This document shows, in pieces, positions 51,690-64,000 of a DNA stretch of 64,000 bases. The translations under genes were made by a program, and so were the position numbers. Where the stretch lies: positions 2,941 through 66,940 of the forward strand of contig JAQGGW010000005.1 in NCBI GenBank assembly GCA_028289135.1. The letters are read 5' to 3'. Origin of the DNA: Candidatus Saccharimonadota bacterium (GTDB lineage Bacteria; Patescibacteriota; Saccharimonadia; Saccharimonadales; JACDBH01). How positions within the stretch are numbered: the stretch's first letter is position 1; every line of letters begins with the position of its first letter. A model generated the notes under the pieces. The model searched no databases. It was not told the DNA's origin and was given only the letters and a program-made list of their open reading frames with translations.

Positions 51690-52608
51690 TAGTATATATT
51701 ATAACATTAAAATAATTAGACGACAAACACCACGAATACCGGAGTACTCGTGGTTAATGTGTTCTCTTTGTGCGCGTAAAGGTGCAATGTCTCATTAGGA
51801 GGAGAACATATTGTCTCGGGCCATGCCCGCGCACTAGCTATGGTTTCGTATGCATACGGCCGTATGTACGATGTTTTGCATTATTGTTTGATAACAGCTC
51901 TTTATACTCTGTACGTCCCAAGGCTTAATGCGCCTGAATGAGGGATCTTTACACGTTCTTGCTAGGCAAAAAGGAGCGTATCATTTGTTTTCAGCAAACA
52001 GGTGCCGGGTAGGCGGTGGACCGCACCATGCTGCCATTCCATCCAGTGGCCGTTCCAGATTTCTCCAGATTGGCTTAGAAGGTCAAGCGAGCACCATGCG
52101 ACCGGACCGCATCGGCCACCCTCCGCAGTCTTCTTATAGCAAAAGACTTGGGTGGTTTCACATAATCATGATTTTTTGTCACCCGCACACCTGGTTTTGA
52201 TTATTGCCCGATGCGCATACCTCTCTCGAGGCGATCCTGCGGCTTTAGTCCTGCGTAGCGGCTTATTAAGCTACTAACCGGCATCTGCCTGCTGCTAAAA
52301 CATTTGTGATACGGCTATTTTGCGCTTTTGCTCTCCGATGCTCCCTCGATGTATTTCTGTATACACCTTCGGTCCGCTTCTCGAGCAAAAGCACAAACTA
52401 GCTCGTTCAAAATGTTTTAGACATACGTCTGCAAAAGACGTAAAAACGAAAATTTCTTAAATTATTTATATTTAAACTATTGTAGAAGAGAATACGTTTG
52501 TAGCTCCAGTGTAGCACAGATTATTGATTTTGTCAAGAGCAATCTTCTTTATAGTGCTTTTGTTTAGTCAACATTTATGGTTTATAGTGGTCATCCAAAG
52601 AGGTAATT
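51690..52608. other. Unassigned ~0.9-kb interval without a credible ORF; candidate large structured RNA or decayed sequence
   Basis: The only ORF of 60 aa or more (51928-52200) has non-protein-like composition. Many strong local helices, for example 51731-51756 and the 10-bp stem 52324-33/52383-92. Confidence 0.5.
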
Positions 52609-52611
52609 ATG
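52601..52611 (+). repeat. Left copy of an 11-nt direct repeat, AGGTAATTATG
   Basis: Identical 11-mer at 63248-63258. It overlaps the radC RBS and start codon. Confidence 0.3.
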
Positions 52612-53256
52612 AAGATATCAGAACTTGAGTTAATAGATCGCCCGCGCGAAAAACTTGCAGCAAAAGGTGTGAAGAATTTGTCGGACTTTGAGTTGCTCCA
52701 GTTAATTATCGGGAGCGGCGTATTTGGGGCAGATGTAACAGTTATTGCAAAAGAAATTAAAAAACTTCTAGATAAATATGGTTATTTAGTTACCCTAGAT
52801 CAGCTGAAGGATATTAAAGGCGTCAGCCTTGCAAGCGCAAGTAAAATTCTTGCTACTTTTGAACTAAGTCAGCGATATACAGTGCAAGATGGGGTTCAAG
52901 TTAAATCCGTTGAAGATGTTTTGCCGCTCTTAAGCTACATAAGAGATAAAAAGCAGGAATATTTTGTTTGCATAACACTCGATGGTGCAAATAGAGTTAT
53001 TGCAACTCGCACTATTACAATTGGCACACTTACTAATTCGCTAGTCCATCCGCGTGAAGTTTTTGCCGACGCTATAACTGATCGTGCGGCGAGCATAATA
53101 ATTGCCCATAATCATCCAGGTGGAAGCCTGAACCCAAGTGACGCAGATGACGATGTCACCATAAGCATAAAATCTGCAGGAAGCATTCTTGGCATTCAAC
53201 TTTTAGATCATCTTATAATTACGAAGCTTGACTACAAAAGCATTATAAATGGTTAA
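52609..53256 (+). CDS. radC: RadC-like JAB/MPN domain protein
   Basis: 215 aa with the HNHPGG JAMM motif and an N-terminal HhH-like region. Confidence 0.88.
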   Translation: MKISELELIDRPREKLAAKGVKNLSDFELLQLIIGSGVFGADVTVIAKEIKKLLDKYGYLVTLDQLKDIKGVSLASASKILATFELSQRYTVQDGVQVKSVEDVLPLLSYIRDKKQEYFVCITLDGANRVIATRTITIGTLTNSLVHPREVFADAITDRAASIIIAHNHPGGSLNPSDADDDVTISIKSAGSILGIQLLDHLIITKLDYKSIING

Positions 53257-53300
53257 ATCATAAGCTATATTACACTGTCAAAAAGTGTTATAATTAAAGC

Positions 53301-53495
53301 ATGAAAGCGCCATCCAGCACTCGTAGAAAGAAAGCAGTTTCTGCTGCTGTTTGGTCTGTTAAAGCAGAGGGCCTTCGGCCTACAAAGGCAGCCTCAAAGA
53401 GCCTTGGATCTTACGCATCAGGCAAAATCTCTGCCAAACAATTACGTGCGGAAACAGCACGCAACGTAAAGAACCTGCTTCGAACATCCAAATAG
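53301..53495 (+). CDS. VbhA-type antitoxin of the Fic toxin
   Basis: 64 aa containing SVKAEG, which fits the (S/T)xxxE(G/N) inhibitory motif. Its stop lies 1 nt before the fic ATG. Confidence 0.75.
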   Translation: MKAPSSTRRKKAVSAAVWSVKAEGLRPTKAASKSLGSYASGKISAKQLRAETARNVKNLLRTSK

Positions 53496-53496
53496 T

Positions 53497-54117
53497 ATGG
53501 CCTATATAATAAAGAACGATCCGTATATTGATCCGGAGTTTGGGGTGCTGCGCAACAAATTGGGTATTATTAGTCAGAAAACTCTCGATGAGGTGGAATT
53601 TACAATTACTTCAACTGAGATCGCGATTTTAGAAGAGAATATTATTAGGGGTGAATTCGATTTAAATCATTTAAAAGCAGTGCACAAAAAGATATTTGGT
53701 GATCTGTATGAGTGGGCTGGCGAAATACGGACAGTGGATATGGGCAAAGATGATACGCTTTTTGCTCATGCAGAATATATTGTGCCGAGTGCAAATGTAT
53801 TATTTGCAGAACTCAAAAATGAAAATTTTTTAAAGGGTCTTAAAAATCCAGAATTTGTAGAGCGGTTTGCGCACTATTATTCTGAAGTTAACATCCTGCA
53901 TCCTTTTCGGGAGGGCAATGGCCGAGCCCAGCGAGCGTTCTTTACACTTTTGGCAAGATATTCTGGCTGGCACGTAGCATGGGACCAAATGATTCAGGAC
54001 GACAATATAGCCGCTAGTGTTGCGGCATATAATGGCGACGAAGAGCCATTGGTTGAGATTTTACTTCCTTTGTTCGAATGGGTAGATGAGGACTATTGGA
54101 ATCTTGGCTTGGCATAG
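53497..54117 (+). CDS. fic: Fic-domain protein (AMPylase-type toxin)
   Basis: Intact HPFREGNGRAQR active-site motif; 206 aa. Confidence 0.9.
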   Translation: MAYIIKNDPYIDPEFGVLRNKLGIISQKTLDEVEFTITSTEIAILEENIIRGEFDLNHLKAVHKKIFGDLYEWAGEIRTVDMGKDDTLFAHAEYIVPSANVLFAELKNENFLKGLKNPEFVERFAHYYSEVNILHPFREGNGRAQRAFFTLLARYSGWHVAWDQMIQDDNIAASVAAYNGDEEPLVEILLPLFEWVDEDYWNLGLA

Positions 54118-54164
54118 TAATGAGTTCCACTATAGGGGTGAAGAGAGTATAATTCTCAGTAAGT

Positions 54165-56573
54165 ATGACCAAAAAAGAAGCTTATTCCCGGGTGGTGATT
54201 GATCGCAAGCTGCGTGAAGCTGGTTGGGATATTGAAGACGAAGAGCAAGTTGTCTTTGAAGATCATAGCACCGCCGGCAGAGCTGACTATGTATTAAAAG
54301 ATTCAAAGGGCATGCCCATAGCGCTTATTGAGGCAAAAGCACCTGAGATTGACCCATATAATGCTAAAAAACAGGCTCGTGATTACGTTGACCTTCAATA
54401 CAAACAGATTGATTTTATATATTTGGCCAACGATCAAAAAATATATTTTTGGGATCTGGGGCATGGCGATGCAGTGCCGTCAGACAGCGGCTTTTTCTCG
54501 CAAAGCGATTTAGAACGAAGACGCGCATCCGGCCGCGTAAATAATGTTAGCCCATTGCTCCAAGAAGCTATAGATACAGATTATTTTAAAGATATTACCG
54601 ATCAGATAAAACTTCGTGATTACCAACTAGACGCATGGAATGCTATTGCAACCAATTATGACGAAAAGCAAAAACGTGCCTTCTTGCTTGAGATGGCAAC
54701 CGGCACGGGCAAAACCGTTCTGGCAGCCTTAATTATTAGCAGATTCTTGCGTACTAATAATGCAAGCCGAGTACTATTTATTGTTGATAGACAGTCATTG
54801 GCAAACCAAACAAAAGGTACTTTTGAACAGCTTCTTCGTAATATTTCCACAGTTGGGGTTTATTGGGGCGGCAAAAGGCAAAACCTTACAGGCAGCAATG
54901 TAGTTATCGCAACTATTCAGTCCCTCGGGCTACATGGTAAAAAAGACTTTACGCCAGGGGCGTTTGATTTAATTATTCACGACGAAGCTCACAGAAGTAT
55001 TTATACGCCTGAGGCGAGGGCAGCGGTTGATCATTTTGTGGGTGCGACAAAAATCGGTCTTACGGCCACGCCTCGTGATTTCTTAAAAAATATTGATATT
55101 GAACAGCTTAGCAATGACGACCCACGTGCTTTAGAGCGCCGCATTCAACGCGATACATATCGTTACTTTGGCTGTGAAAATGGTGTGCCAACATTTCGAT
55201 ATACAATTCAGGACGGCTCAAAAGCTGGCTATTTAATTGAGCCGGTTTACCGTAAGGCAAACACCTCGCTTACGTACCAAGCCCTGAGTGATCAAGGCAT
55301 AACAAAGTTAGATGATGTAGAGCTAGAAGAAGGCACAAGCCTTAAGATTCGTGACTTAGAGCGAAAAGTATTCTTTCCGAAGCGCAATCGTGCAATGATG
55401 CAAGAGTTTTTAGACTACGCAGATTATGCGCCAAACGGTGAAGTAGGCAAGACTTTGATATTTGCAGTTTCGCAGAATCACGCACTTGCTTTAACAAAAA
55501 TTCTGAACGAATTAACGCCAGAATATAACGGCCGCTTTGCCGAAGTTATTACAAGCCGCGTGCATGGGGCACATGAGATAGCCAAAGATTTTGCAAACCT
55601 TAATAACAAACTGCCACGCGTTGCCGTTACTGTTGATATGCTTGCGACAGGCTTTGACGCGCCAGAAATTCTGAACCTTGTCATGGCACGTGCAATTTAT
55701 GACCCTACAACCTATCAACAAATGAAGGGCCGCGGTACACGGCTATGTCCAGAAGTTAAAAAGGAGCGCTTCGTAATTCATGACTTTGCCGGTGTCATTG
55801 ATTACTTTGCTGAAAAGCATGACTGGGATGTTCCGCTGAATGCTCCAGCTAATAAAGTTTACGGTACGGCTGTAGAATCAGTAGAAGAAACAATGCCTAT
55901 GATTCGTGGATCTGCAATTGGTGAGCCGATACAAGAGTATGTTCGTGCGAGTGATATACCTACAAGCAATATGCAAGATTTTATCGCTACACGTGACGTG
56001 GTGCAGTACGGTCTTGGCGAGGGCGATGTTGTTGACAGGAATATGTACCAGGACGAATGGACCAAAGCGGTTCATAACTATGTAAAAGAAAATCGAGAAA
56101 AAGTCGAGCAAGTTATTGACGATCCAGAGCAACTAGACGAGCTCATGGTAGATATTAACCGCGAACTTTTGGACCGACCAAAATATTACTTTAATGAAGA
56201 GACCTTACAGCAAAGTCACCGAGTTATAGCTGGCGTAAGAGATTTTTTCTTGGCGGCACTCGGTAAGACAAAATTACCAACACGTGATGAACAGCTAGCG
56301 GAGTTTAAGCAAGGCCTCGTGAATAAATTTGCCGACAGCGAAGGTGGCGCATCACAGCGTCGCACGCAAATGGTCAAATATTTGGCGGATCACCTTATGG
56401 GTGACCATAAACTTGTTTTAGCAATACGGCTGGAGGGTAACTTATCATTTTTAGCTAAACCAGAATTTGCACAGGCATATACAACCCGCGACTGGCTTGC
56501 AGAATTTAAAGACAAAGATGAACTTTTGGAATTAATTAGTGATATAGCTGTAAACCCGCTACTAAAGGTTTAA
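54165..56573 (+). CDS. hsdR: Type I restriction enzyme R subunit
   Basis: N-terminal PD-(D/E)xK-like GRADYVL...IALIEAKA, helicase motif I MATGTGKT and motif II HDEAH; 802 aa. Confidence 0.9.
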   Translation: MTKKEAYSRVVIDRKLREAGWDIEDEEQVVFEDHSTAGRADYVLKDSKGMPIALIEAKAPEIDPYNAKKQARDYVDLQYKQIDFIYLANDQKIYFWDLGHGDAVPSDSGFFSQSDLERRRASGRVNNVSPLLQEAIDTDYFKDITDQIKLRDYQLDAWNAIATNYDEKQKRAFLLEMATGTGKTVLAALIISRFLRTNNASRVLFIVDRQSLANQTKGTFEQLLRNISTVGVYWGGKRQNLTGSNVVIATIQSLGLHGKKDFTPGAFDLIIHDEAHRSIYTPEARAAVDHFVGATKIGLTATPRDFLKNIDIEQLSNDDPRALERRIQRDTYRYFGCENGVPTFRYTIQDGSKAGYLIEPVYRKANTSLTYQALSDQGITKLDDVELEEGTSLKIRDLERKVFFPKRNRAMMQEFLDYADYAPNGEVGKTLIFAVSQNHALALTKILNELTPEYNGRFAEVITSRVHGAHEIAKDFANLNNKLPRVAVTVDMLATGFDAPEILNLVMARAIYDPTTYQQMKGRGTRLCPEVKKERFVIHDFAGVIDYFAEKHDWDVPLNAPANKVYGTAVESVEETMPMIRGSAIGEPIQEYVRASDIPTSNMQDFIATRDVVQYGLGEGDVVDRNMYQDEWTKAVHNYVKENREKVEQVIDDPEQLDELMVDINRELLDRPKYYFNEETLQQSHRVIAGVRDFFLAALGKTKLPTRDEQLAEFKQGLVNKFADSEGGASQRRTQMVKYLADHLMGDHKLVLAIRLEGNLSFLAKPEFAQAYTTRDWLAEFKDKDELLELISDIAVNPLLKV

Positions 56574-56577
56574 AACA

Positions 56578-59043
56578 ATGGCAGAATTTAATACCGCAGA
56601 CCTACACAAACAAGTTGACCGTCTTATGGATATTTTCTTTGGGGCGGGTGTTGCAAGCCACCCAACAATTATTGAACAGATTAACTACCTGCTATTTATG
56701 CGCGCACTTTCTTATAAGGATGACGAATATCTTGCACTTGGCATTAATGATGCCGACACGATTGTTTTTGACGGTGAGCTTGAAAAATATCGCTGGGAAA
56801 ACTTACTGAGTCTAAATGCTGAAGCATTGTTTGTAGCGCTTGAAGATTGCTTTCGTAAAATTCCAGAAAGCACAAACAATAAAACGGTTCGTTTAGTTTT
56901 TCGAAATGCGCATATAAAACTGTTTGATAAGCCGAGTCTGCGGGTTGTAGTGCATGAAATTGATGCCTTTGCCAAACTGATGGACGAAGGAGAACATGAA
57001 GGTAAACACGATATTTTCGGTGATACATATGAATACTTGTTGAGTAAGCTTGCGCAAGCCGGTACTTCTGGCCAGTTCAGAACGCCGCGCCACATTATTG
57101 AGTTTCTTGTAGCAGTAGTCGCGCCTAAAAAAGGCGAAACTATTCTCGACCCAGCCGTCGGCACGGCTGGTTTTTTAGTGAAAGCTTTTGAATATTTGCG
57201 AAAAGAATACACATCGCCGGAACAGGCAGCCACGGGTGGTGCATTCGATAAGCTAAGCTCCAAAGAACATACATTTTTGTACGAACATACCTTTACTGGC
57301 TTTGACAGCGACGAAGACATGATTAAATTTGGCATGATGAACCTGTACCTTCACGGCTTGCAGAATGCGCATCTTGTGCGCCAAAACACACTTACCGACA
57401 CTGCTGGTAATCGCGATAAATACGATATTATTCTGGCCAACCCGCCTTTTAGTGGCAAGATTGACCGCGACAGCGTGGCTCAAGAGCTGCAAATGAATAC
57501 AGGAGCAACGGAAGTTCTATTTTTGCGTTATATGCTAGAGCATTTGACCGACAGTGGCCGTATGGGTGTGATAGTGCCAGAGGGCGTGATTTTTAATGGC
57601 TCAAGTGCACATGTTAAAATTCGCAAAATGCTTATTGAAAGTGGGCTTTGGTGTGTAGTGAGCCTCCCAGCGGGGGTCTTTAACCCATATGCGGGTGTTA
57701 AAACATCTATAGTTTTTATAGACAAATCCCTAAACAAAAATACTGAAATATTATTTGCCAAAGCTGAATCTGATGGTCTTAGTTTTGGTGCGCAGCGTCG
57801 CCCTATAATAAGAAACGATATACCGGGTATTTTGAGTGGTATAAAAAACCTTAAAGCGGGTATACCTTCAGAGTCTATCCATGTGCATAGTGTTAACAGA
57901 GATATGATTATAAATAGCAAAGACTATAACCTAAATGGTGATCGCTATAAAACTGTTGGCACTAACATGCTTTCGCAATGGACGCATACCGAGCTTAGTA
58001 ATGTGGCAAGAATTGAAAAGGGGAAATCATCTTCTACTAAAACTGAGCCTGGAGAGTACCCCCTAGTTCTTACAGCAAAAAATAGTAAAACTTCTAAAAA
58101 TTATGATTTTGAGGGCGAAGCAGTTCTTGTGCCACTTATCTCTGCGACAGGCCACGGTAAATCTGATATTAAAACAATTCATTATCAGAAGGGTAAGTTT
58201 GCTGCAGCAAATTTACTAGCAGTAGTTATGCCAGATCCTAATAAATGTGATGCAAAATATCTGCGTTTGTATTTAGATTATAAGAAAGATTACATCGCTA
58301 AAACTAAAATGTCTGGAGCAGCTAACAGGAGTATGAAGTTAGAGGATTTACACGATGTTCCTATCCCTCTACCGACTTTAGACATTCAGCATCAAATTGT
58401 ATCTGAAATTGATGGTTATCAAAAAATTATTGATGCTGCTAAAATAATTGTCAAATTTTATAAACCAGCTGTCAAAATGAATCCAGACTGGGATATCTCT
58501 AGCCTCGAGGATGTCTTTGATATGGTAAATGGCAGAGCTTTTAAAACATCGGAATGGTCGGATGCAGGAATTCCTATAATCCGGATCGCTAACCTAAACG
58601 GGGAATCCGCGAAGTATAACTATTACTCCGGTAATTATGACGACAAAACGCTTGTAGAACCTGGCCAACTGCTATTTTCTTGGTCTGGTACAAAAGGCAC
58701 ATCCTTCGGACCACATCTATGGCAGAGAAAAGCTGGGCTTTTAAATCAGCACATATTCAAGCTTAATCCAAAAGGAATTCCTATTGATTTGACGTTCGCC
58801 TACCACTATTTGAAAGCAATCGTGCCTGAAATAGAAGCAAAAGCACATGGATCAGGCGGCTTAGTACATATTACGAAGGGAGAACTTGGCAAGTTTAAAA
58901 TCCCTACTCCTGAGATTAGTGAACAAAGAAAAATAGTTGCCGCACTCGAAACAGAGCAGCAACTTATAAATGCAAACAAAACACTAATCGAAACATTCCA
59001 GCAAAAAATTAAAGATAAAATCGCAGAAATTTGGGGTGAATAA
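56578..59043 (+). CDS. hsdM: Fused Type I methyltransferase-specificity polypeptide (HsdM domain plus a complete two-TRD HsdS domain)
   Basis: N-terminal HsdM_N-like region, SAM motif ILDPAVGTAGFL and catalytic NPPF. Residues from about 470 to 821 contain two TRD-like blocks, each followed by a helical spacer (LDIQHQIVSEID..., ISEQRKIVAALE...). Confidence 0.85.
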   Translation: MAEFNTADLHKQVDRLMDIFFGAGVASHPTIIEQINYLLFMRALSYKDDEYLALGINDADTIVFDGELEKYRWENLLSLNAEALFVALEDCFRKIPESTNNKTVRLVFRNAHIKLFDKPSLRVVVHEIDAFAKLMDEGEHEGKHDIFGDTYEYLLSKLAQAGTSGQFRTPRHIIEFLVAVVAPKKGETILDPAVGTAGFLVKAFEYLRKEYTSPEQAATGGAFDKLSSKEHTFLYEHTFTGFDSDEDMIKFGMMNLYLHGLQNAHLVRQNTLTDTAGNRDKYDIILANPPFSGKIDRDSVAQELQMNTGATEVLFLRYMLEHLTDSGRMGVIVPEGVIFNGSSAHVKIRKMLIESGLWCVVSLPAGVFNPYAGVKTSIVFIDKSLNKNTEILFAKAESDGLSFGAQRRPIIRNDIPGILSGIKNLKAGIPSESIHVHSVNRDMIINSKDYNLNGDRYKTVGTNMLSQWTHTELSNVARIEKGKSSSTKTEPGEYPLVLTAKNSKTSKNYDFEGEAVLVPLISATGHGKSDIKTIHYQKGKFAAANLLAVVMPDPNKCDAKYLRLYLDYKKDYIAKTKMSGAANRSMKLEDLHDVPIPLPTLDIQHQIVSEIDGYQKIIDAAKIIVKFYKPAVKMNPDWDISSLEDVFDMVNGRAFKTSEWSDAGIPIIRIANLNGESAKYNYYSGNYDDKTLVEPGQLLFSWSGTKGTSFGPHLWQRKAGLLNQHIFKLNPKGIPIDLTFAYHYLKAIVPEIEAKAHGSGGLVHITKGELGKFKIPTPEISEQRKIVAALETEQQLINANKTLIETFQQKIKDKIAEIWGE

Positions 59044-59045
59044 AC

Positions 59046-60710
59046 ATGAGAATAACTAGAATTTGCATCAAAAATTTTCGATCTATAGAGGATGTAACTA
59101 TTGAAACAAATAATTTGAATGTACTCGTAGGTCAAAATAATCATGGCAAAACTAATTTTTTAACTGCGATTAATTGGTTTTTTTATGGCGGAAGTACTGA
59201 ACTTCACAAGAGAAAGGGTACTGGATCAGGTAACCCATATATTGAGATATGTTTCGACGATGTGCAGGGGGCATTGAAGAAGATGAAGAACGAGAAAAAT
59301 AGCAAAACCCTATCTTCAAAATTAGAAAATGTAGAAGAAGTTTCTCTGGTAAGGACTGTAGACGAGGAGGGTAAAACCAATCGAAGAATTGTTAATAGAG
59401 AAACTCGTGAACTTAGTGACCCAGGTACGGGATTTGACAAGGCCCTAAACGATTTCTTGCCTAACCTAGAGTTTGTACAAACTGAAAATAATTTACGAGA
59501 TATTTTAAAATACGGTAAAACTACTCAAATTGGTACCATGCTTTCGGGAGTCTTGAACGAGATACTGGCTAGCGGCGATCCAGCTTACAAAAGATTTGTA
59601 GATGAATTTTATACCTTATTTGGATCAAAAGAATCAAAAATTTACGATGAACTTAGAAAACTTGCTGAGAGCGTGGAGCTATATTTAAAAAAGCAGTTTC
59701 CTGAAACCACAAAAGTTGAGTTTGAGGTCAAGAATCCTGAACTTACAGATCTGTTCAAAAATTTTTCCGCGAAAGTAGATGATGGGGTTGTGACTGAAGC
59801 TTATGAAAAAGGCGATGGAATGCAACGAGCTTTAATGCTTGCGATAATTCAAACCTTTGCAGATTACAGGAGAAAAAATGCAGATATAAAGAACTTTATT
59901 TTTCTAATTGATGAGGGTGAGCTGCATCTTCACCCTGGTGCACAAAGGCATTTAAAGTCTGCACTTGAAGATCTTGCAAAGGATGGAGATCAGATATTTT
60001 TGACTACCCACTCCTCTGTGCTTATATCTGACGATAGCTCAGGTGACAAACAAAGTACTTTCAAAGTTGAAAAGTTCGAGGACGGAGTAACGAATATTGA
60101 TATACAAAATGAATACGCTAAGAAAAACATTATATACGAACTTCTTGGAGGTAGCCCTACCGATTTGCTAATGCCGTCGAATTTTATAATTGTTGAAGGC
60201 TCTTCAGAAGTTGATTTTTTAAGCAAGGTAATCGAACGACATTATCCAGAGAAAAAGTCCCTTAAGATCCTTCCCGCAAGAGGAGACTTTTATCAATCAG
60301 TACAACTCATGAATTCATTAGAGAAATTATTTACACCGCTGTCAGAGAGTATATATAAAGGTCATTTTCAAGTTCTTATTGATAAAAGTAAGCTCACAGA
60401 TGCGCAATTTCAAGAACTCCTTACTAAAGTCCCTAATTTCGATAAGGACTCCCAGTTTCATGAGCTTAGTCTTGGATCCCTTGAAGAATATTATCCTATC
60501 AAAAAAGCTGACCAATGTGCGGACTCATCAAATAGCAGATTATTTATGGAAAAATGGAAACTGTCATCAGCCGAAGTCTCCGCGCTTAGTTCTAAACAGA
60601 AGAGCCGTATGTCAAAAATTATTGGTGATAATATCACTAAAGATCAATTTGAAAACGAAATGCCATTAATGTTAAAGGTTTTAAATATGGCCTACGAGAA
60701 GAAATTATGA
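59046..60710 (+). CDS. ABC-type ATPase with a C-terminal Toprim/DUF4435-like region (OLD-family nuclease or fused PARIS AriA-AriB-like)
   Basis: MRITRICIKNFRSIED..., Walker A GQNNHGKTN, Walker B FLIDEGELHLHP, and a C-terminal IIVEGSSEVDFL motif. Confidence 0.8.
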   Translation: MRITRICIKNFRSIEDVTIETNNLNVLVGQNNHGKTNFLTAINWFFYGGSTELHKRKGTGSGNPYIEICFDDVQGALKKMKNEKNSKTLSSKLENVEEVSLVRTVDEEGKTNRRIVNRETRELSDPGTGFDKALNDFLPNLEFVQTENNLRDILKYGKTTQIGTMLSGVLNEILASGDPAYKRFVDEFYTLFGSKESKIYDELRKLAESVELYLKKQFPETTKVEFEVKNPELTDLFKNFSAKVDDGVVTEAYEKGDGMQRALMLAIIQTFADYRRKNADIKNFIFLIDEGELHLHPGAQRHLKSALEDLAKDGDQIFLTTHSSVLISDDSSGDKQSTFKVEKFEDGVTNIDIQNEYAKKNIIYELLGGSPTDLLMPSNFIIVEGSSEVDFLSKVIERHYPEKKSLKILPARGDFYQSVQLMNSLEKLFTPLSESIYKGHFQVLIDKSKLTDAQFQELLTKVPNFDKDSQFHELSLGSLEEYYPIKKADQCADSSNSRLFMEKWKLSSAEVSALSSKQKSRMSKIIGDNITKDQFENEMPLMLKVLNMAYEKKL

Positions 60711-61900
60711 ATGAAATTATATGTCCACACTGTAAAAAAGCCTTTAAAGTTGATGAGGCAGGCTTTGCTGATATTTTGAAGCAGGTGCGTGACCACAAGT
60801 TTGAGGAAGAGTTGCTTGAGCGCGTGCAAATGCTGGAGAGAGATAAAGAAAATGCCGTTAAGCTGGCGGAGGCTACTACTAAAAACGAACTTCAAGCCGA
60901 AGCGGCAAAAAAAGATGCGGAAGTCGCTGAGCTTAAGGCAAAACTTCAGGCTACAGAAACTGAAAAAAAGCTGGCTGTTACTGAAGCGGTAAATATAGTC
61001 GAAAAACAGCGCGATGAGCTTGTTGGGAAACTTCAAAGTAAAGATACGGAAAAACAGTTGCTTGAAGCTTCGCTGAAAGATAAGTATGAATCCGAACTTA
61101 AGTCTAAAGACGAAATGATTGCCTACTACAAAGACATGAAGGCTAAGCTTTCTACAAAAATGGTAGGCGAGACACTAGAACAGCACTGTGAGATAGAATT
61201 TAACAAACTGCGTGCAACGGCTTTTCAAAACGCATACTTCGAGAAAGACAATGATGCAAGCAGCGGCAGCAAGGGCGATTATATTTACAAAGAAACTGAT
61301 GAAAATGGTACCGAAATTATCTCTATCATGTTTGAGATGAAGAACGAAGGTGATGAAACGGCAACAAAAAAGAAAAATGAAGATTTCCTGCGTGAGCTAG
61401 ACAAAGATCGAAGCGAGAAAAATTGCGAGTTTGCAGTACTTGTATCTCTACTTGAAGCCGATAACGAACTATATAACTCGGGCATTGTTGATGTGTCGCA
61501 TAAACATTCGAAGATGTATGTCATACGGCCCCAATTCTTTATACCAATAATTACTTTACTTCGTAATGCCGCAATGACCTCAATGCAGTACAAATCCGAA
61601 CTTGCCCTAGTTAAATCACAGAATATTGATGTTACGAACTTCGAGGATCAGTTAAATGATTTTCGTGACTCTTTTGGTAAAAGCTACCGTCTGGCATCCG
61701 AGCGTTTTCAAGATGCAGTAGCGAGTATTGATAAGTCGATAGCTCAGCTCCAAAAAACTAAAGAGAACTTGCTGAAGTCAGAAGATCACTATCGAATCGC
61801 AAACAATAAGGCAGATGAGCTATCGGTCAAGAAACTTATACGCGGAAACCCTACTATGTCTGCTAGGTTTGCAAATTTAGATGATAAGAAGACTAGATAA
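60707..61900 (+). CDS. DUF2130 family protein (N-terminal zinc ribbon, coiled coil, conserved C-terminal domain)
   Basis: MNEIICPHCKKAFKVDEAGFADILKQVRD start and a long E/K-rich coiled coil. ATGA overlap with the upstream gene. Confidence 0.75.
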   Translation: MNEIICPHCKKAFKVDEAGFADILKQVRDHKFEEELLERVQMLERDKENAVKLAEATTKNELQAEAAKKDAEVAELKAKLQATETEKKLAVTEAVNIVEKQRDELVGKLQSKDTEKQLLEASLKDKYESELKSKDEMIAYYKDMKAKLSTKMVGETLEQHCEIEFNKLRATAFQNAYFEKDNDASSGSKGDYIYKETDENGTEIISIMFEMKNEGDETATKKKNEDFLRELDKDRSEKNCEFAVLVSLLEADNELYNSGIVDVSHKHSKMYVIRPQFFIPIITLLRNAAMTSMQYKSELALVKSQNIDVTNFEDQLNDFRDSFGKSYRLASERFQDAVASIDKSIAQLQKTKENLLKSEDHYRIANNKADELSVKKLIRGNPTMSARFANLDDKKTR

Positions 61901-61942
61901 GTCAGTTTGACAGTATACGGACTCTCATGATCTACTTAAGGC

Positions 61943-62779
61943 ATGTCACCGAAGTTAATTTCTATATTTTTGCCTGATGGTAACCCAAATGCTTTAAAGA
62001 TTGCAGAAATATCGAACCGTAATATACGGGCACTTTTAATTCCTCGCCCAAAACTTACAGATGCAATAGCAAGAGTTGAGCTAAATCAGCCCGCGCTTTA
62101 TGTGCTTACGGATAGAGATGCAAGTGAAATTTATATCGGTGAATGCGAAAACTTTTTGCACAGAGTAAAATCACATGACCAAAAGAAAGATTTTTGGGAT
62201 GTTGCATTAGTGTTTGTAGCCAAAGACAGTTCGCTTGAAAAAGGGGATGTAAAATATCTAGAATCCTTAGCCGTAGAAATAGCAAAGGACGCTGAACGTA
62301 CTAAAGTTACTAATCTCACTGTACCGGCACGTAATAATTTACATGAATTTAAAGCTCAAACTATATTAGAATTTTTTGACGATCTCAAGCTACTTATTTC
62401 TGCACTCGGTTATCCTGTGTTTGACAAAATAAAAATTGAAGAAAAAAATGAATCTGAATTTTGGTATTGTGATAGACGTCTCACGAAGGCTAAAGCTATT
62501 TATGACGAAAACGGTTTCACGGTGATTAAGGGCTCGATTATAGATGCTACTGTCCAGCCATCATTATTAAAGTATTATCCATATGCTGTCAAAGAGCGAG
62601 AAGAACTTATATCACAAAAGGCATCCCTGAATCACGATAAAGTTTCATATACACTAAAAGAGAATATTACTTTCAGCAGCGCAAATAAGGCAGGCGGCTT
62701 TGTTGTCGGTGCCAATATAAATGCTTGGACAAACTGGAAAAATAAGGCCGGTAAAACAATGGACGAGGTTTTGCGTTAA
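61943..62779 (+). CDS. GIY-YIG-like nuclease family protein with a DUF4357-like C-terminal domain
   Basis: ALYVLTD....EIYIGECENFLHRVKSH...KDFWD...VF pattern. The C-terminus FTVIKGS...S.ANKAGGFV.G resembles DUF4357. Confidence 0.7.
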   Translation: MSPKLISIFLPDGNPNALKIAEISNRNIRALLIPRPKLTDAIARVELNQPALYVLTDRDASEIYIGECENFLHRVKSHDQKKDFWDVALVFVAKDSSLEKGDVKYLESLAVEIAKDAERTKVTNLTVPARNNLHEFKAQTILEFFDDLKLLISALGYPVFDKIKIEEKNESEFWYCDRRLTKAKAIYDENGFTVIKGSIIDATVQPSLLKYYPYAVKEREELISQKASLNHDKVSYTLKENITFSSANKAGGFVVGANINAWTNWKNKAGKTMDEVLR

Positions 62780-62783
62780 AATT

Positions 62784-63200
62784 ATGGAAGAAAATGTAAA
62801 GAAAAACTTCTGGCTCTATACTTTAGCTTTAAGCGATGGAAAATATTATGTGGGTATTACTGCGCAACGAAACCCATACGTACGTATCAATCAACATGGA
62901 AAATTTGCGAGCGCTGCATGGACTCATAAACATAAACCGCTAAAAGAACCACTTATTGAACTTAAAAAACTCGGATATATGACATATGTAGACGCCAAAA
63001 AGTTAGAGTCTGAGACGATGATGGAGTATGTGAAAAAATATGGGCAAAATAATGTACGTGGTGGTAACGTGAACTTTACTGAAGATTCTATAAAAATAGG
63101 TAACAGATTTTGGCTAAAAGATGATTTTAGTACAACAATATTAGTAACAACCCTTTGTTTAATGATTATATTTTTGAGCATAGCTTACCAGCTAAAATGA
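62784..63200 (+). CDS. Small GIY-YIG domain protein with a C-terminal TM helix
   Basis: FWLYTLALSDGKYYVGITAQ...R..QH and VRGG motifs. The C-terminus ILVTTLCLMIIFLSIAY is hydrophobic. The ATG at 62784 lies 4 nt after the upstream stop; the track ORF starts earlier, inside the upstream gene. Confidence 0.65.
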   Translation: MEENVKKNFWLYTLALSDGKYYVGITAQRNPYVRINQHGKFASAAWTHKHKPLKEPLIELKKLGYMTYVDAKKLESETMMEYVKKYGQNNVRGGNVNFTEDSIKIGNRFWLKDDFSTTILVTTLCLMIIFLSIAYQLK

Positions 63201-63247
63201 ACCCCTACCTAGACATAGAAGGCGTAATATGTCGAATGAACTATAAA

Positions 63248-63258
63248 AGGTAATTATG
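63248..63258 (+). repeat. Right copy of the 11-nt direct repeat AGGTAATTATG
   Basis: Identical to 52601-52611. It lies in the intergenic region after the last island gene. Confidence 0.3.
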
Positions 63259-63310
63259 GCAAAAGGTATGTAATTTCTATTCCTCTCTCAGTTCAGATAA
63301 ACTTATAGCT

Positions 63311-63982
63311 ATGGTCCGACATCACATCCAAAATGAAATTTTGTACCGGCTGAGTTTTGATGAGTCTTTGCGGTTTAGCGAGCTGAAGCCGACGGAGCTT
63401 GAAAACAAGCTTTTTGATTACCATTTGAAGCAGCTTATTAAAGACGGTTTGGTGCAAAAAAGTGAGGATGGAGCTTACACACTAACACCAGATGGCAAGA
63501 GAATGGGCGTGACTGTTTTTGATGACCAGCTGAGCAAGGCCAAAATGCCACGGTCGGTTTTGTTTTTGGTCATACGGCGCAAAAGCGACAATGCTTGGCT
63601 TTTGTACAAACGCTCCACTCATCCGCTAAAAGACTTGGCAGGATTTATGCACCTAACGGCCGAAGCAGACAAAACGTTGAATGACGGCGCGCACGAGCAA
63701 GTAAAAGAACGCACCGGTCTGGACTGCAGCTTTACGCCGCTTGGCGGAGGATTCTTTAAAACCTTTAGAGGCGACAAGCTCGAAAGCTTTACTAACTTTA
63801 CGCTTCTGGTTTGTGAAGATGCAAAAGGGGAATTAGTTCCCAACGACGACAGGGCAGAGTATTTTTGGGCTACCGACCCTGACTTCGCCGCGCCGGATAT
63901 GCTGCCAAACATGGTGACGTTGGTGGACCATTATCAAGCAGGCAAGCCGTTTTTTATTGAGGAAGTTTTTAATATTTCTTAG
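63311..63982 (+). CDS. Winged-helix DNA-binding domain fused to a NUDIX-like domain
   Basis: N-terminal wHTH pattern (LRFSEL...FDYHLKQLIKDGLV) and a C-terminal Nudix-fold-like region with a degenerate box. Confidence 0.65.
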   Translation: MVRHHIQNEILYRLSFDESLRFSELKPTELENKLFDYHLKQLIKDGLVQKSEDGAYTLTPDGKRMGVTVFDDQLSKAKMPRSVLFLVIRRKSDNAWLLYKRSTHPLKDLAGFMHLTAEADKTLNDGAHEQVKERTGLDCSFTPLGGGFFKTFRGDKLESFTNFTLLVCEDAKGELVPNDDRAEYFWATDPDFAAPDMLPNMVTLVDHYQAGKPFFIEEVFNIS

Positions 63983-64000
63983 GCCTCAACCGGTGGTTGA

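Follow-up and report, generated by a model that had tools for sequence, protein, structure and literature searches.

A 64,000-nt stretch of the Candidatus Saccharimonadota assembly GCA_028289135.1 (contig JAQGGW010000005.1, positions 2,941-66,940, forward strand; hereafter the window) carries two adjacent genes that very likely make up a natural, compact two-gene restriction-modification system of Type I. The first gene, hsdR (54165-56573), encodes the restriction subunit, and the second, hsdMS (56578-59043), encodes a single polypeptide in which the methyltransferase subunit HsdM is joined to a specificity subunit HsdS with two target recognition domains (TRDs). This is the 'Type IMS' arrangement, a name given by Roberts et al. 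to HsdM-HsdS (M-S) fusions with one or two TRDs that work with a separate HsdR (PMC3510504). The structural elements of that definition are present here, the fused M-S chain and the HsdR encoded apart from it, and the separate M and S polypeptides of a classical Type I enzyme are replaced by one open reading frame (ORF). The M-S fusion of hsdMS is genuine and natural. The architecture is common in bacteria, and the gene itself is an ordinary member of its family.

An initial annotation of the window had described one uninterrupted ORF carrying the motifs DPAVGTAGF and NPPF followed by two blocks, each consisting of a TRD and a helix. All four motifs were located, and Pfam and an AlphaFold2 model of the hsdMS product agree with this layout. 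The model has a mean predicted local distance difference test (pLDDT) score of 84 and a predicted template modelling (pTM) score of 0.55. The two genes and the domains of hsdMS (CR, conserved region) are as follows.

54165-56573, + strand: hsdR, restriction/translocase subunit, 802 aa (Pfam HSDR_N, ResIII and Helicase_C)
56578-59043, + strand: hsdMS, fused methyltransferase-specificity subunit, 821 aa plus stop, without interruption
56578-56997, + strand: HsdM N-terminal helical domain, residues 1-140 (Pfam HsdM_N at 9-110; helical in the AlphaFold2 model)
56998-57777, + strand: gamma-class N6-adenine methyltransferase catalytic domain, residues 141-400 (Pfam N6_Mtase; Foldseek)
57778-57951, + strand: HsdM C-terminal subdomain, residues 401-458, ending DYNLNGDRYK, with no tail helix after it
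57952-57978, + strand: M-S linker, nine residues (459-467; pLDDT <50 at 459-466)
57979-58368, + strand: TRD1, residues 468-597 (beta-rich in the AlphaFold2 model at 470-597; hypervariable)
58369-58485, + strand: CR1, central conserved helix, residues 598-636 (AlphaFold2 helix 601-627)
58486-58911, + strand: TRD2, residues 637-778 (Pfam Methylase_S at 637-804; beta-rich in the AlphaFold2 model at 640-776)
58912-59040, + strand: CR2, C-terminal conserved helix, residues 779-821 (AlphaFold2 helix 780-819)

The M part of the chain has the features of a gamma-class N6-adenine methyltransferase with the N-terminal domain of HsdM. Motif I, DPAVGTAGF, occupies residues 191-199 (57148-57174) and motif IV, NPPF, residues 288-291 (57439-57450); both are invariant in the 41 family members that were used for the alignment of motifs and junction and for the AlphaFold2 model. 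Pfam detected HsdM_N at residues 9-110, N6_Mtase at 144-459 (E 2.6e-55) and Methylase_S in two stretches (E 4.4e-39), and PADLOC assigned residues 6-468 to its Type I methyltransferase model (2e-107) and the remainder to Type I specificity models. In a Foldseek comparison the catalytic domain matched the HsdM structures 2OKC, 5YBB and 2Y7C. The S part is a Type I specificity module in the order TRD1-CR1-TRD2-CR2, with variable TRDs and conserved helices. The helix motifs that follow the TRDs lie at residues 596-618 (IPLPTLDIQHQIVSEIDGYQKII) and 775-797 (IPTPEISEQRKIVAALETEQQLI), and CR1 lines up with the conserved central region in HsdS structure 5YBB_D. Pfam identified no nuclease or helicase domain in the 821-aa chain. 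A strong terminator-like hairpin was observed within the ORF at 57151-57176. Its stem of 8 bp includes 6 G-C pairs (CCAGCCGTCGGCACGGCTGG), and a T6 run comes after it; the hairpin falls exactly on the codons of motif I (PAVGTAGFL), and this is probably a coincidence of codon choice.

To place hsdMS among its relatives, we inspected the best 120 of 7,999 scored protein matches to the 821-aa query (handles beginning with P), and the best 80 loci of at least 593 matches from a scan of one genome per GTDB species; handles beginning with L denote loci of relatives. The 80 loci were called as fused or split by six-frame ORF analysis. Identity of the 120 proteins to the query ranges from 41 to 76%, and the assemblies that encode them are independent; N6_Mtase and Methylase_S are both present in all but four of them, two of the four being truncated fragments. 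A protein identical to the hsdMS product (P0001) has been deposited as 'methylase [Candidatus Saccharibacteria bacterium]' from a 214-kb contig. A single M-S ORF is present at approximately 65 of the 80 loci, and at most of the 80 one tblastn segment covers the query from about residue 1 to 821. These loci are found in Proteobacteria, Bacteroidota, Chloroflexota, Verrucomicrobiota, Acidobacteriota, Planctomycetota, Spirochaetota, Firmicutes and several lineages of the candidate phyla radiation (CPR). A few relatives are split, such as L079 (M of 512 aa and S of 354 aa) and L083.

The junction between the M and S parts is of nearly constant form in the 41 aligned members, 'DYNLSGDRYK' being followed by 8-9 residues and then by '(K)WPxVxLG', the start of TRD1. 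More than 100 divergent homologues, including ones from complete isolate genomes and plasmids, share this in-frame junction. Because the same fixed-length junction recurs across many phyla and in many independent homologues, the fusion is real, and a single joining of the two genes in the distant past is the simplest explanation. The caution in the initial annotation that two genes might have been joined by an assembly or sequencing error is thus not borne out. The hsdMS ORF contains no homopolymer of at least 7 A/T or at least 6 G/C that could promote an indel error. In the 41-member alignment and in the ORF itself, the junction shows no conserved internal start, no slippery site and no stop. 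Met464, which lies near it, is not conserved and has no Shine-Dalgarno sequence upstream. An internal start or recoding at the junction was rejected on these grounds. The single-chain type is a real fusion and not a rare one.

The partner gene hsdR encodes a protein with a PD-(D/E)xK nuclease and a superfamily 2 translocase, and all of its motifs are intact (nuclease D41...E56-A-K58, QARDY, GTGKT at 180 and DEAH at 273). PADLOC assigned it to REase_I (2.8e-64). The closest curated NCBIfam model is that of the EcoAI/FtnUII-family R subunit, at 243.6 bits and hence below the cut-off of 550. The stop codon of hsdR is 4 nt upstream of the ATG of hsdMS, and an AAGG precedes that ATG. A similar proximity was observed elsewhere: hsdR abuts or overlaps hsdMS in L001-L007, adjoins it in nearly every one of the 80 GTDB loci that has upstream DNA, and is paired with it on a Paracoccus plasmid and on E. 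coli IncF plasmids. When the two halves, M and S, were compared by phmmer with every six-frame ORF in the 64 kb of the window, hsdMS alone was recovered and no other hsdM or hsdS, in agreement with the initial annotation, which had reported no separate hsdS nearby and a full HsdM fused to a full two-TRD HsdS; the HsdR that is separate from this chain is encoded directly beside it. Nor was an additional hsdM or hsdS present within 6 kb of the relatives at the 80 loci, and no M-only ORF was found at any fused locus.

Two forms of the fusion occur within the family. Among the best matches, approximately two-thirds are 800-880 aa in length and contain two TRDs; approximately one-third are 630-690 aa and end after CR1, and are M-half-S fusions. 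One-TRD and two-TRD members are interleaved in a tree of the M domain, and sister pairs of the two forms are 71-88% identical over their common first 630-690 residues; P0074 and P0106, for instance, which differ only in TRD2-CR2, share 88% identity over 630 residues. Hosts of two-TRD members include Pelagibacterium halotolerans ABH-592 and Paracoccus zhejiangensis J6 (plasmid pPZ02). Since the forms interleave and the sister pairs are so closely alike, sequence comparison indicates that the TRD2-CR2 unit has been gained or lost often. The conservation profile follows the classical HsdS pattern as judged by mean pairwise identity among two-TRD proteins, which is 0.58 for HsdM_N and 0.69 for the methyltransferase core, and 0.20, 0.48, 0.20 and 0.38 for TRD1, CR1, TRD2 and CR2, respectively.

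The TRDs also move between positions. TRD1 of the query matches TRD2 of P0003 at 68% identity, and its identity to TRD1 of P0007 and P0009 (one TRD) and of P0006 (two TRDs) is 64-66%. For TRD2 of the query, the matches include TRD1 of P0005, at 70% identity, and that of the one-TRD protein P0004, at 63%. In all, 81 cross-position matches were found in the family, at up to 70% identity. Because TRD types shift between positions 1 and 2, both TRDs of hsdMS look functional, and the cross-position matches argue that TRD2 is a genuine TRD, belonging to a type that in other proteins functions right next to an M domain.

One of the one-TRD members is carried by an E. coli IncF plasmid, NZ_CP116482.1 (L088, 2397-9945), where the genes for WP_000887497.1 (677 aa, 'N-6 DNA methylase'), for an HsdR-like protein of 849 aa annotated as 'DEAD/DEAH box helicase family protein' and for an AAA ATPase of the TrlF family lie between finO and repA. 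Of 5,426 complete E. coli genomes, 78 carry this one-TRD member on plasmids, at 99% identity or more. The R and M-S genes of L088 carry generic names only, and have apparently never been named as a restriction-modification system. In four one-TRD members from separate branches (P0009, P0015, P0025 and P0053) we also observed a conserved C-terminal helix, '...AIDHAREIIK(S/T)LERERELILTQAL', that is absent from two-TRD members; it may be a version of the conserved region specific for homodimerisation.

The M part of hsdMS ends sooner than a stand-alone HsdM. Profiles of stand-alone HsdM reach approximately 29 positions further, the match to TIGR00497 ending at position 486 of 515 and that to PDLC03021 at 462 of 491. 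The split relatives L079 and L083 have approximately 35 more residues after RYK, helical by composition. The AlphaFold2 model contains no helix between residue 446 and TRD1, and the M-S linker is 8-9 residues in all 41 members. Profiles and model show that the M-S family has lost the HsdM C-terminal tail helix, the element that anchors M on the coiled coil of HsdS. Deletion of the HsdM C-terminus is reported to block assembly with HsdS (PMC6158711). In the hsdMS family, the covalent link between M and S replaces this non-covalent anchor.

The fusion raises the question of how one M domain serves two TRDs. The initial annotation had reasoned that a chain with one M and two TRDs is incompatible with the M2S1 ratio unless something extra is supplied; this reasoning is sound, and it is already in the literature. 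By analogy with Type I enzymology, the S part of hsdMS would read a bipartite asymmetric site and the tethered M would methylate the adenine of the TRD1 half-site. HsdR, docked on M, would be expected to translocate DNA in an ATP-driven reaction and to cleave unmethylated DNA at a distance. For the adenine of the TRD2 half-site we tentatively favor methylation in trans by the M of a second M-S chain, giving R2(MS)2, a proposal to which we assign somewhat less than an even chance. The second chain would be recruited mainly through M-M and M-DNA contacts, with its own S idle or bound elsewhere.

We favor R2(MS)2 because the TRDs are interchangeable and because an engineered fusion, the S. aureus CC398-1 MSfus of Bower et al. 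2018, methylates both strands of its site ACCN5RTGA (PMC6158711). Both MSfus and an M-half-S fusion of the same system restrict with HsdR, and MSfus is active without added M; its gel filtration hinted at a dimer, (MSfus)2 (PMC6158711).

Several points weigh against R2(MS)2. The M acting in trans is without a known anchor, because the family is without the HsdM tail and deletion of the HsdM C-terminus blocks assembly (PMC6158711). On geometric grounds, the 9-residue tether is likely to put TRD1 of the second chain onto the TRD2 site of the first. The engineered EcoKI hsdM-hsdS fusion of Roberts et al. 2012 restricts and modifies in vivo with HsdR, but in vitro it requires added HsdM, which counters a simple (MS)2 (PMC3510504). 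The AlphaFold2 model, with its pTM of 0.55, leaves the orientation of M relative to S undefined, and no biochemical or methylome data on any natural two-TRD member were found in the searchable literature.

An alternative to R2(MS)2, which we consider unlikely, is that M1S1, perhaps with one HsdR, is the working unit and that methylation is confined to the TRD1 half-site adenine, on one strand. The logic of restriction would then resemble that of Type ISP or Type III enzymes, with a single motor in each complex and new DNA protected by the orientation of sites or by convergent collision. Consistent with this, each chain has a single M and neither the window nor the 80 loci contain another, no tail helix is present to anchor a second M, and the short linker of fixed length holds M to TRD1. 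Two-TRD forms are moreover the family majority, so a 1:2 ratio is clearly viable, and modification of a single strand is described as sufficient in the MmeI and Type ISP systems (PMC2731913, PMC3874165). However, TRD types that adjoin M in one-TRD proteins recur at position 2, which suggests that M serves position 2 as well, and the engineered two-TRD CC398-1 fusion methylated both strands (PMC6158711). Restriction by classical Type I enzymes is also bidirectional, and each round of replication would endanger one unmethylated daughter duplex.

A more specific form of the M1S1 proposal, and a doubtful one, is that the tail-less two-TRD fusion works as an M1S1 protomer paired with one HsdR, in the manner of a Type ISP enzyme split in two, recognizing a bipartite site and methylating only one strand. 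Such an enzyme would need a logic of self-protection other than that of classical Type I systems. In a variant, the 'idle' S of a second chain would bind a second site, resulting in an obligate two-site synapse like that of Type IIB enzymes. Either the M1S1 or the two-site arrangement, if true, would also explain the puzzle of one RM to two TRDs in AloI and CjeI.

A free M derived from the same gene, by proteolysis of the linker or by stalled translation, could instead supply the second methyltransferase as R2 + M + MS. This was the proposal made for the engineered EcoKI fusion, for which Roberts et al. weighed R2 + M + MS against R2(MS)2 with an idle S (PMC3510504). That fusion requires added HsdM in vitro and co-purifies with a trace of HsdM-sized protein (PMC3510504), and the CC398-1 MSfus, itself active without added M, co-purifies with a clipped 73-kDa fragment consisting of M plus half of TRD1 (PMC6158711). 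The pLDDT below 50 at linker residues 459-466 of hsdMS also fits such a cleavage. We nevertheless regard the free-M explanation as improbable for this family, since a clipped M would be without the tail helix needed for the coiled coil of S, the linker is short, fixed in length and not an obvious cleavage loop, and the junction is free of any conserved internal start, slippery site or stop, Met464 not being conserved. The rest of the probability lies with arrangements other than R2(MS)2, M1S1 and free M.

The genes that follow hsdMS bear on a further alternative. An OLD-family ABC ATPase gene (554 aa; PADLOC Old 1e-63) starts 2 nt past the hsdMS stop codon and shares 4 nt with the next gene, which encodes a 397-aa DUF2130 protein bearing a Zn-ribbon at its N-terminus; the two together occupy 59046-61900 of the window. 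The four genes for R, MS, OLD and DUF2130 look co-transcribed. The same place in L003 (10534-14153), a relative from Shapirobacteria, is taken by genes for an AAA_13 ATPase and for a DUF2130 protein, whose sequences can barely be aligned with those of the window pair. No DUF2130 relative was detected at the 80 loci, and OLD gave a single marginal match (L060, E 2.6e-06); OLD and DUF2130 were accordingly rejected as obligate partners of hsdMS. The ATPase and DUF2130 genes may represent a separate defence module that rides on Type I loci, as PrrC does.

That the M-S fusion is not a Type I core, and is instead an orphan methyltransferase or part of a multi-gene defence system (MADS-like, or dependent on OLD and DUF2130), is very improbable. 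The tight spacing of R, MS, OLD and DUF2130, the equivalent position of the ATPase and DUF2130 genes in L003, and weak NCBIfam matches to MAD2, MAD3 and MAD5 would fit such a system. These matches are, however, far under the cut-offs (MAD2 104 bits against 720, MAD5 24.7 against 400, MAD3 35.8 against 420), which rules out membership of the locus in MADS; the DUF2130/ATPase pairs of the window and of L003 can barely be aligned; and across the 80 loci the OLD and DUF2130 genes are all but missing, yet hsdR is almost always present. The chance that the fusion is an artefact uniting a separate hsdM and hsdS is negligible, for although split relatives exist (L079, L083), they differ structurally by their additional tail of approximately 35 aa, the junction recurs in the many independent homologues, and the hsdMS ORF is free of long homopolymers.

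Other genes surround the system in the window. Directly before hsdR, at 53301-54117, is a toxin-antitoxin pair in which a VbhA-like antitoxin (64 aa; Pfam VbhA 3e-08) lies directly 5' of a Fic/VbhT-like adenylyltransferase (206 aa; PADLOC PDC-S04 8e-74). A RadC-family JAB protein is encoded just upstream of the island (52609-53256), and RadC homologues occur within 6 kb of the R and M-S operon in four unrelated genomes (L016, L061, L067 and L076). On the other side, at 61943-63200, lies the gene for a PDC-S14-like protein (GIY-YIG and DUF4357; PADLOC 2e-81), and the ORF that comes after and overlaps it is a second one with GIY-YIG; PDC-S14 homologues also adjoin the operon in L028 and L053. 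The G+C content across this cluster of defence genes (52000-64000) drops from approximately 0.46 to 0.37-0.42, and within hsdMS the S-coding half (0.37) is lower than the M-coding half (0.42). These values fit a horizontally acquired island with imported TRDs.

In several relatives the gap between hsdR and hsdMS holds extra genes (L010, L012, L016, L022, L024, L025, L027, L035, L038, L056 and L078). Their products include a four-helix-bundle protein with a topoisomerase-type Zn-ribbon (L010, L025), an IS200-like transposase, ORF6N/KilA-N, Abi-like and Fic proteins, an AAA ATPase with an RloB-like protein, and a GxxExxY-type protein. The junction of hsdR and hsdMS appears to be a hotspot for heterogeneous hitchhiker genes. 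The gap ORFs were considered as a hidden second hsdM or hsdS and rejected, being unrelated hitchhikers.

The hsdMS gene is a further member of the natural Type IMS-type systems, and its value lies mainly at the level of the family, in the loss of the tail, the flipping between one and two TRDs and the wide distribution. What was engineered as Type IMS has its counterpart in nature in this family, which is under-annotated, the names assigned by PGAP being 'N-6 DNA methylase' and 'DEAD/DEAH box helicase family protein'. Evolution flips readily between M-half-S (1:1) and M-S (1:2) forms while HsdR is kept. Without the tail, the family offers a clean natural system for the question of one methyltransferase and two TRDs that it shares with AloI and CjeI, and the one-TRD members found on IncF plasmids of E. 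coli would make a manageable control for experiments. Saccharibacteria and other CPR bacteria have very small genomes, to which a compact Type I system of two genes may be well suited.

We compared the system with those already known. The initial annotation had named Type ISP and Type IIG enzymes as known single-chain forms; M-S fusions with a separate HsdR have also been published (PMC3510504, PMC6158711). Literature on 'Type IMS' or HsdMS-type fusions consisted of the engineered fusions and a citation to V. vulnificus M1S1/2, and no description of a natural two-TRD system of R and M-S was found in the searchable literature, which does not cover REBASE. The annotation's reading would have been overturned by a common, characterised subtype; of this condition the first half holds, and for the second no characterised natural two-TRD member was found in the same literature. 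The split 'Type IIG-like' systems of Blow et al. 2016 were considered and set aside as members of the hsdMS family, being MmeI-type with a single TRD.

The single-chain enzymes resemble hsdMS in part. Type ISP enzymes (LlaGI, LlaBIII) likewise derive from Type I through domain fusion and have an M:R ratio of 1:1, but they hold nuclease, motor, methyltransferase and a single TRD in one chain, whereas hsdMS has a separate R and two TRDs. AloI, CjeI, PpiI and TstI (Type IIB/IIG) share with hsdMS one methyltransferase domain followed by two functional TRDs in a single chain. They differ in having an N-terminal PD-ExK nuclease, no translocase partner and fixed cuts on both sides of the site; in the hsdMS system the nuclease and ATP motor reside on the separate HsdR, and the N-terminus of the fusion is HsdM_N. 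Neither the Type ISP layout nor the nuclease-M-S layout of AloI and CjeI is therefore that of hsdMS. In the review by Loenen et al., the action of AloI and CjeI is called 'a mystery' given their ratio of 1RM:2TRD (PMC3874165).

A closer structural relative is V. vulnificus YJ016 M1S1/2, a natural M-half-S fusion for which a crystal structure is available (7EEW; Seo et al. 2022, cited in PMC12429846) and of which two chains rebuild M2S1 (PMC12429846). The 7EEW structure was the top Foldseek match of the hsdMS model (E 6e-29, 17% identity), and it is collinear with M-TRD1-CR1 of the family (profile 251-629 against chain residues 224-607). Like hsdMS it is a natural single chain of HsdM, a TRD and a CR helix, and unlike hsdMS it has one TRD, hence no stoichiometry problem, and is distant. 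In this enzyme an 'M-tail helix' is reportedly retained. Our sequence search did not place the 'M-tail helix' of 7EEW relative to hsdMS. The window protein, with two TRDs, departs from the minimal methyltransferase M1S1/2 with its one TRD and one CR helix. The one-TRD relatives do fit that feature and, by analogy, are likely to behave as 7EEW does, two chains rebuilding an M2S1-like core.

Classical Type I enzymes (R2M2S1) have in common with the hsdR-hsdMS system the domains and motifs of HsdR, a gamma-class N6-methyladenine methyltransferase and a TRD-CR-TRD-CR specificity module with shuffling; in them M and S are separate chains and the M tail helix is present. Classical enzymes move DNA in an ATP-dependent way, cut it far from their bipartite site and leave hemimethylated DNA intact. 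By its R subunit the system is nearest the EcoAI/Type IB lineage, though its score of 243.6 bits is below the equivalog cut-off of 550. The engineered EcoKI and CC398-1 fusions correspond most directly to hsdMS, each being an in-frame HsdM-HsdS chain with a separate HsdR and a source of the second M in question. They differ in being laboratory-made and in retaining the whole tail helix of HsdM as well as the HsdS N-terminus in its native form, whereas the hsdMS family, which is natural, old and found in many phyla, no longer has the tail and joins M to S by a fixed linker of 8-9 residues.

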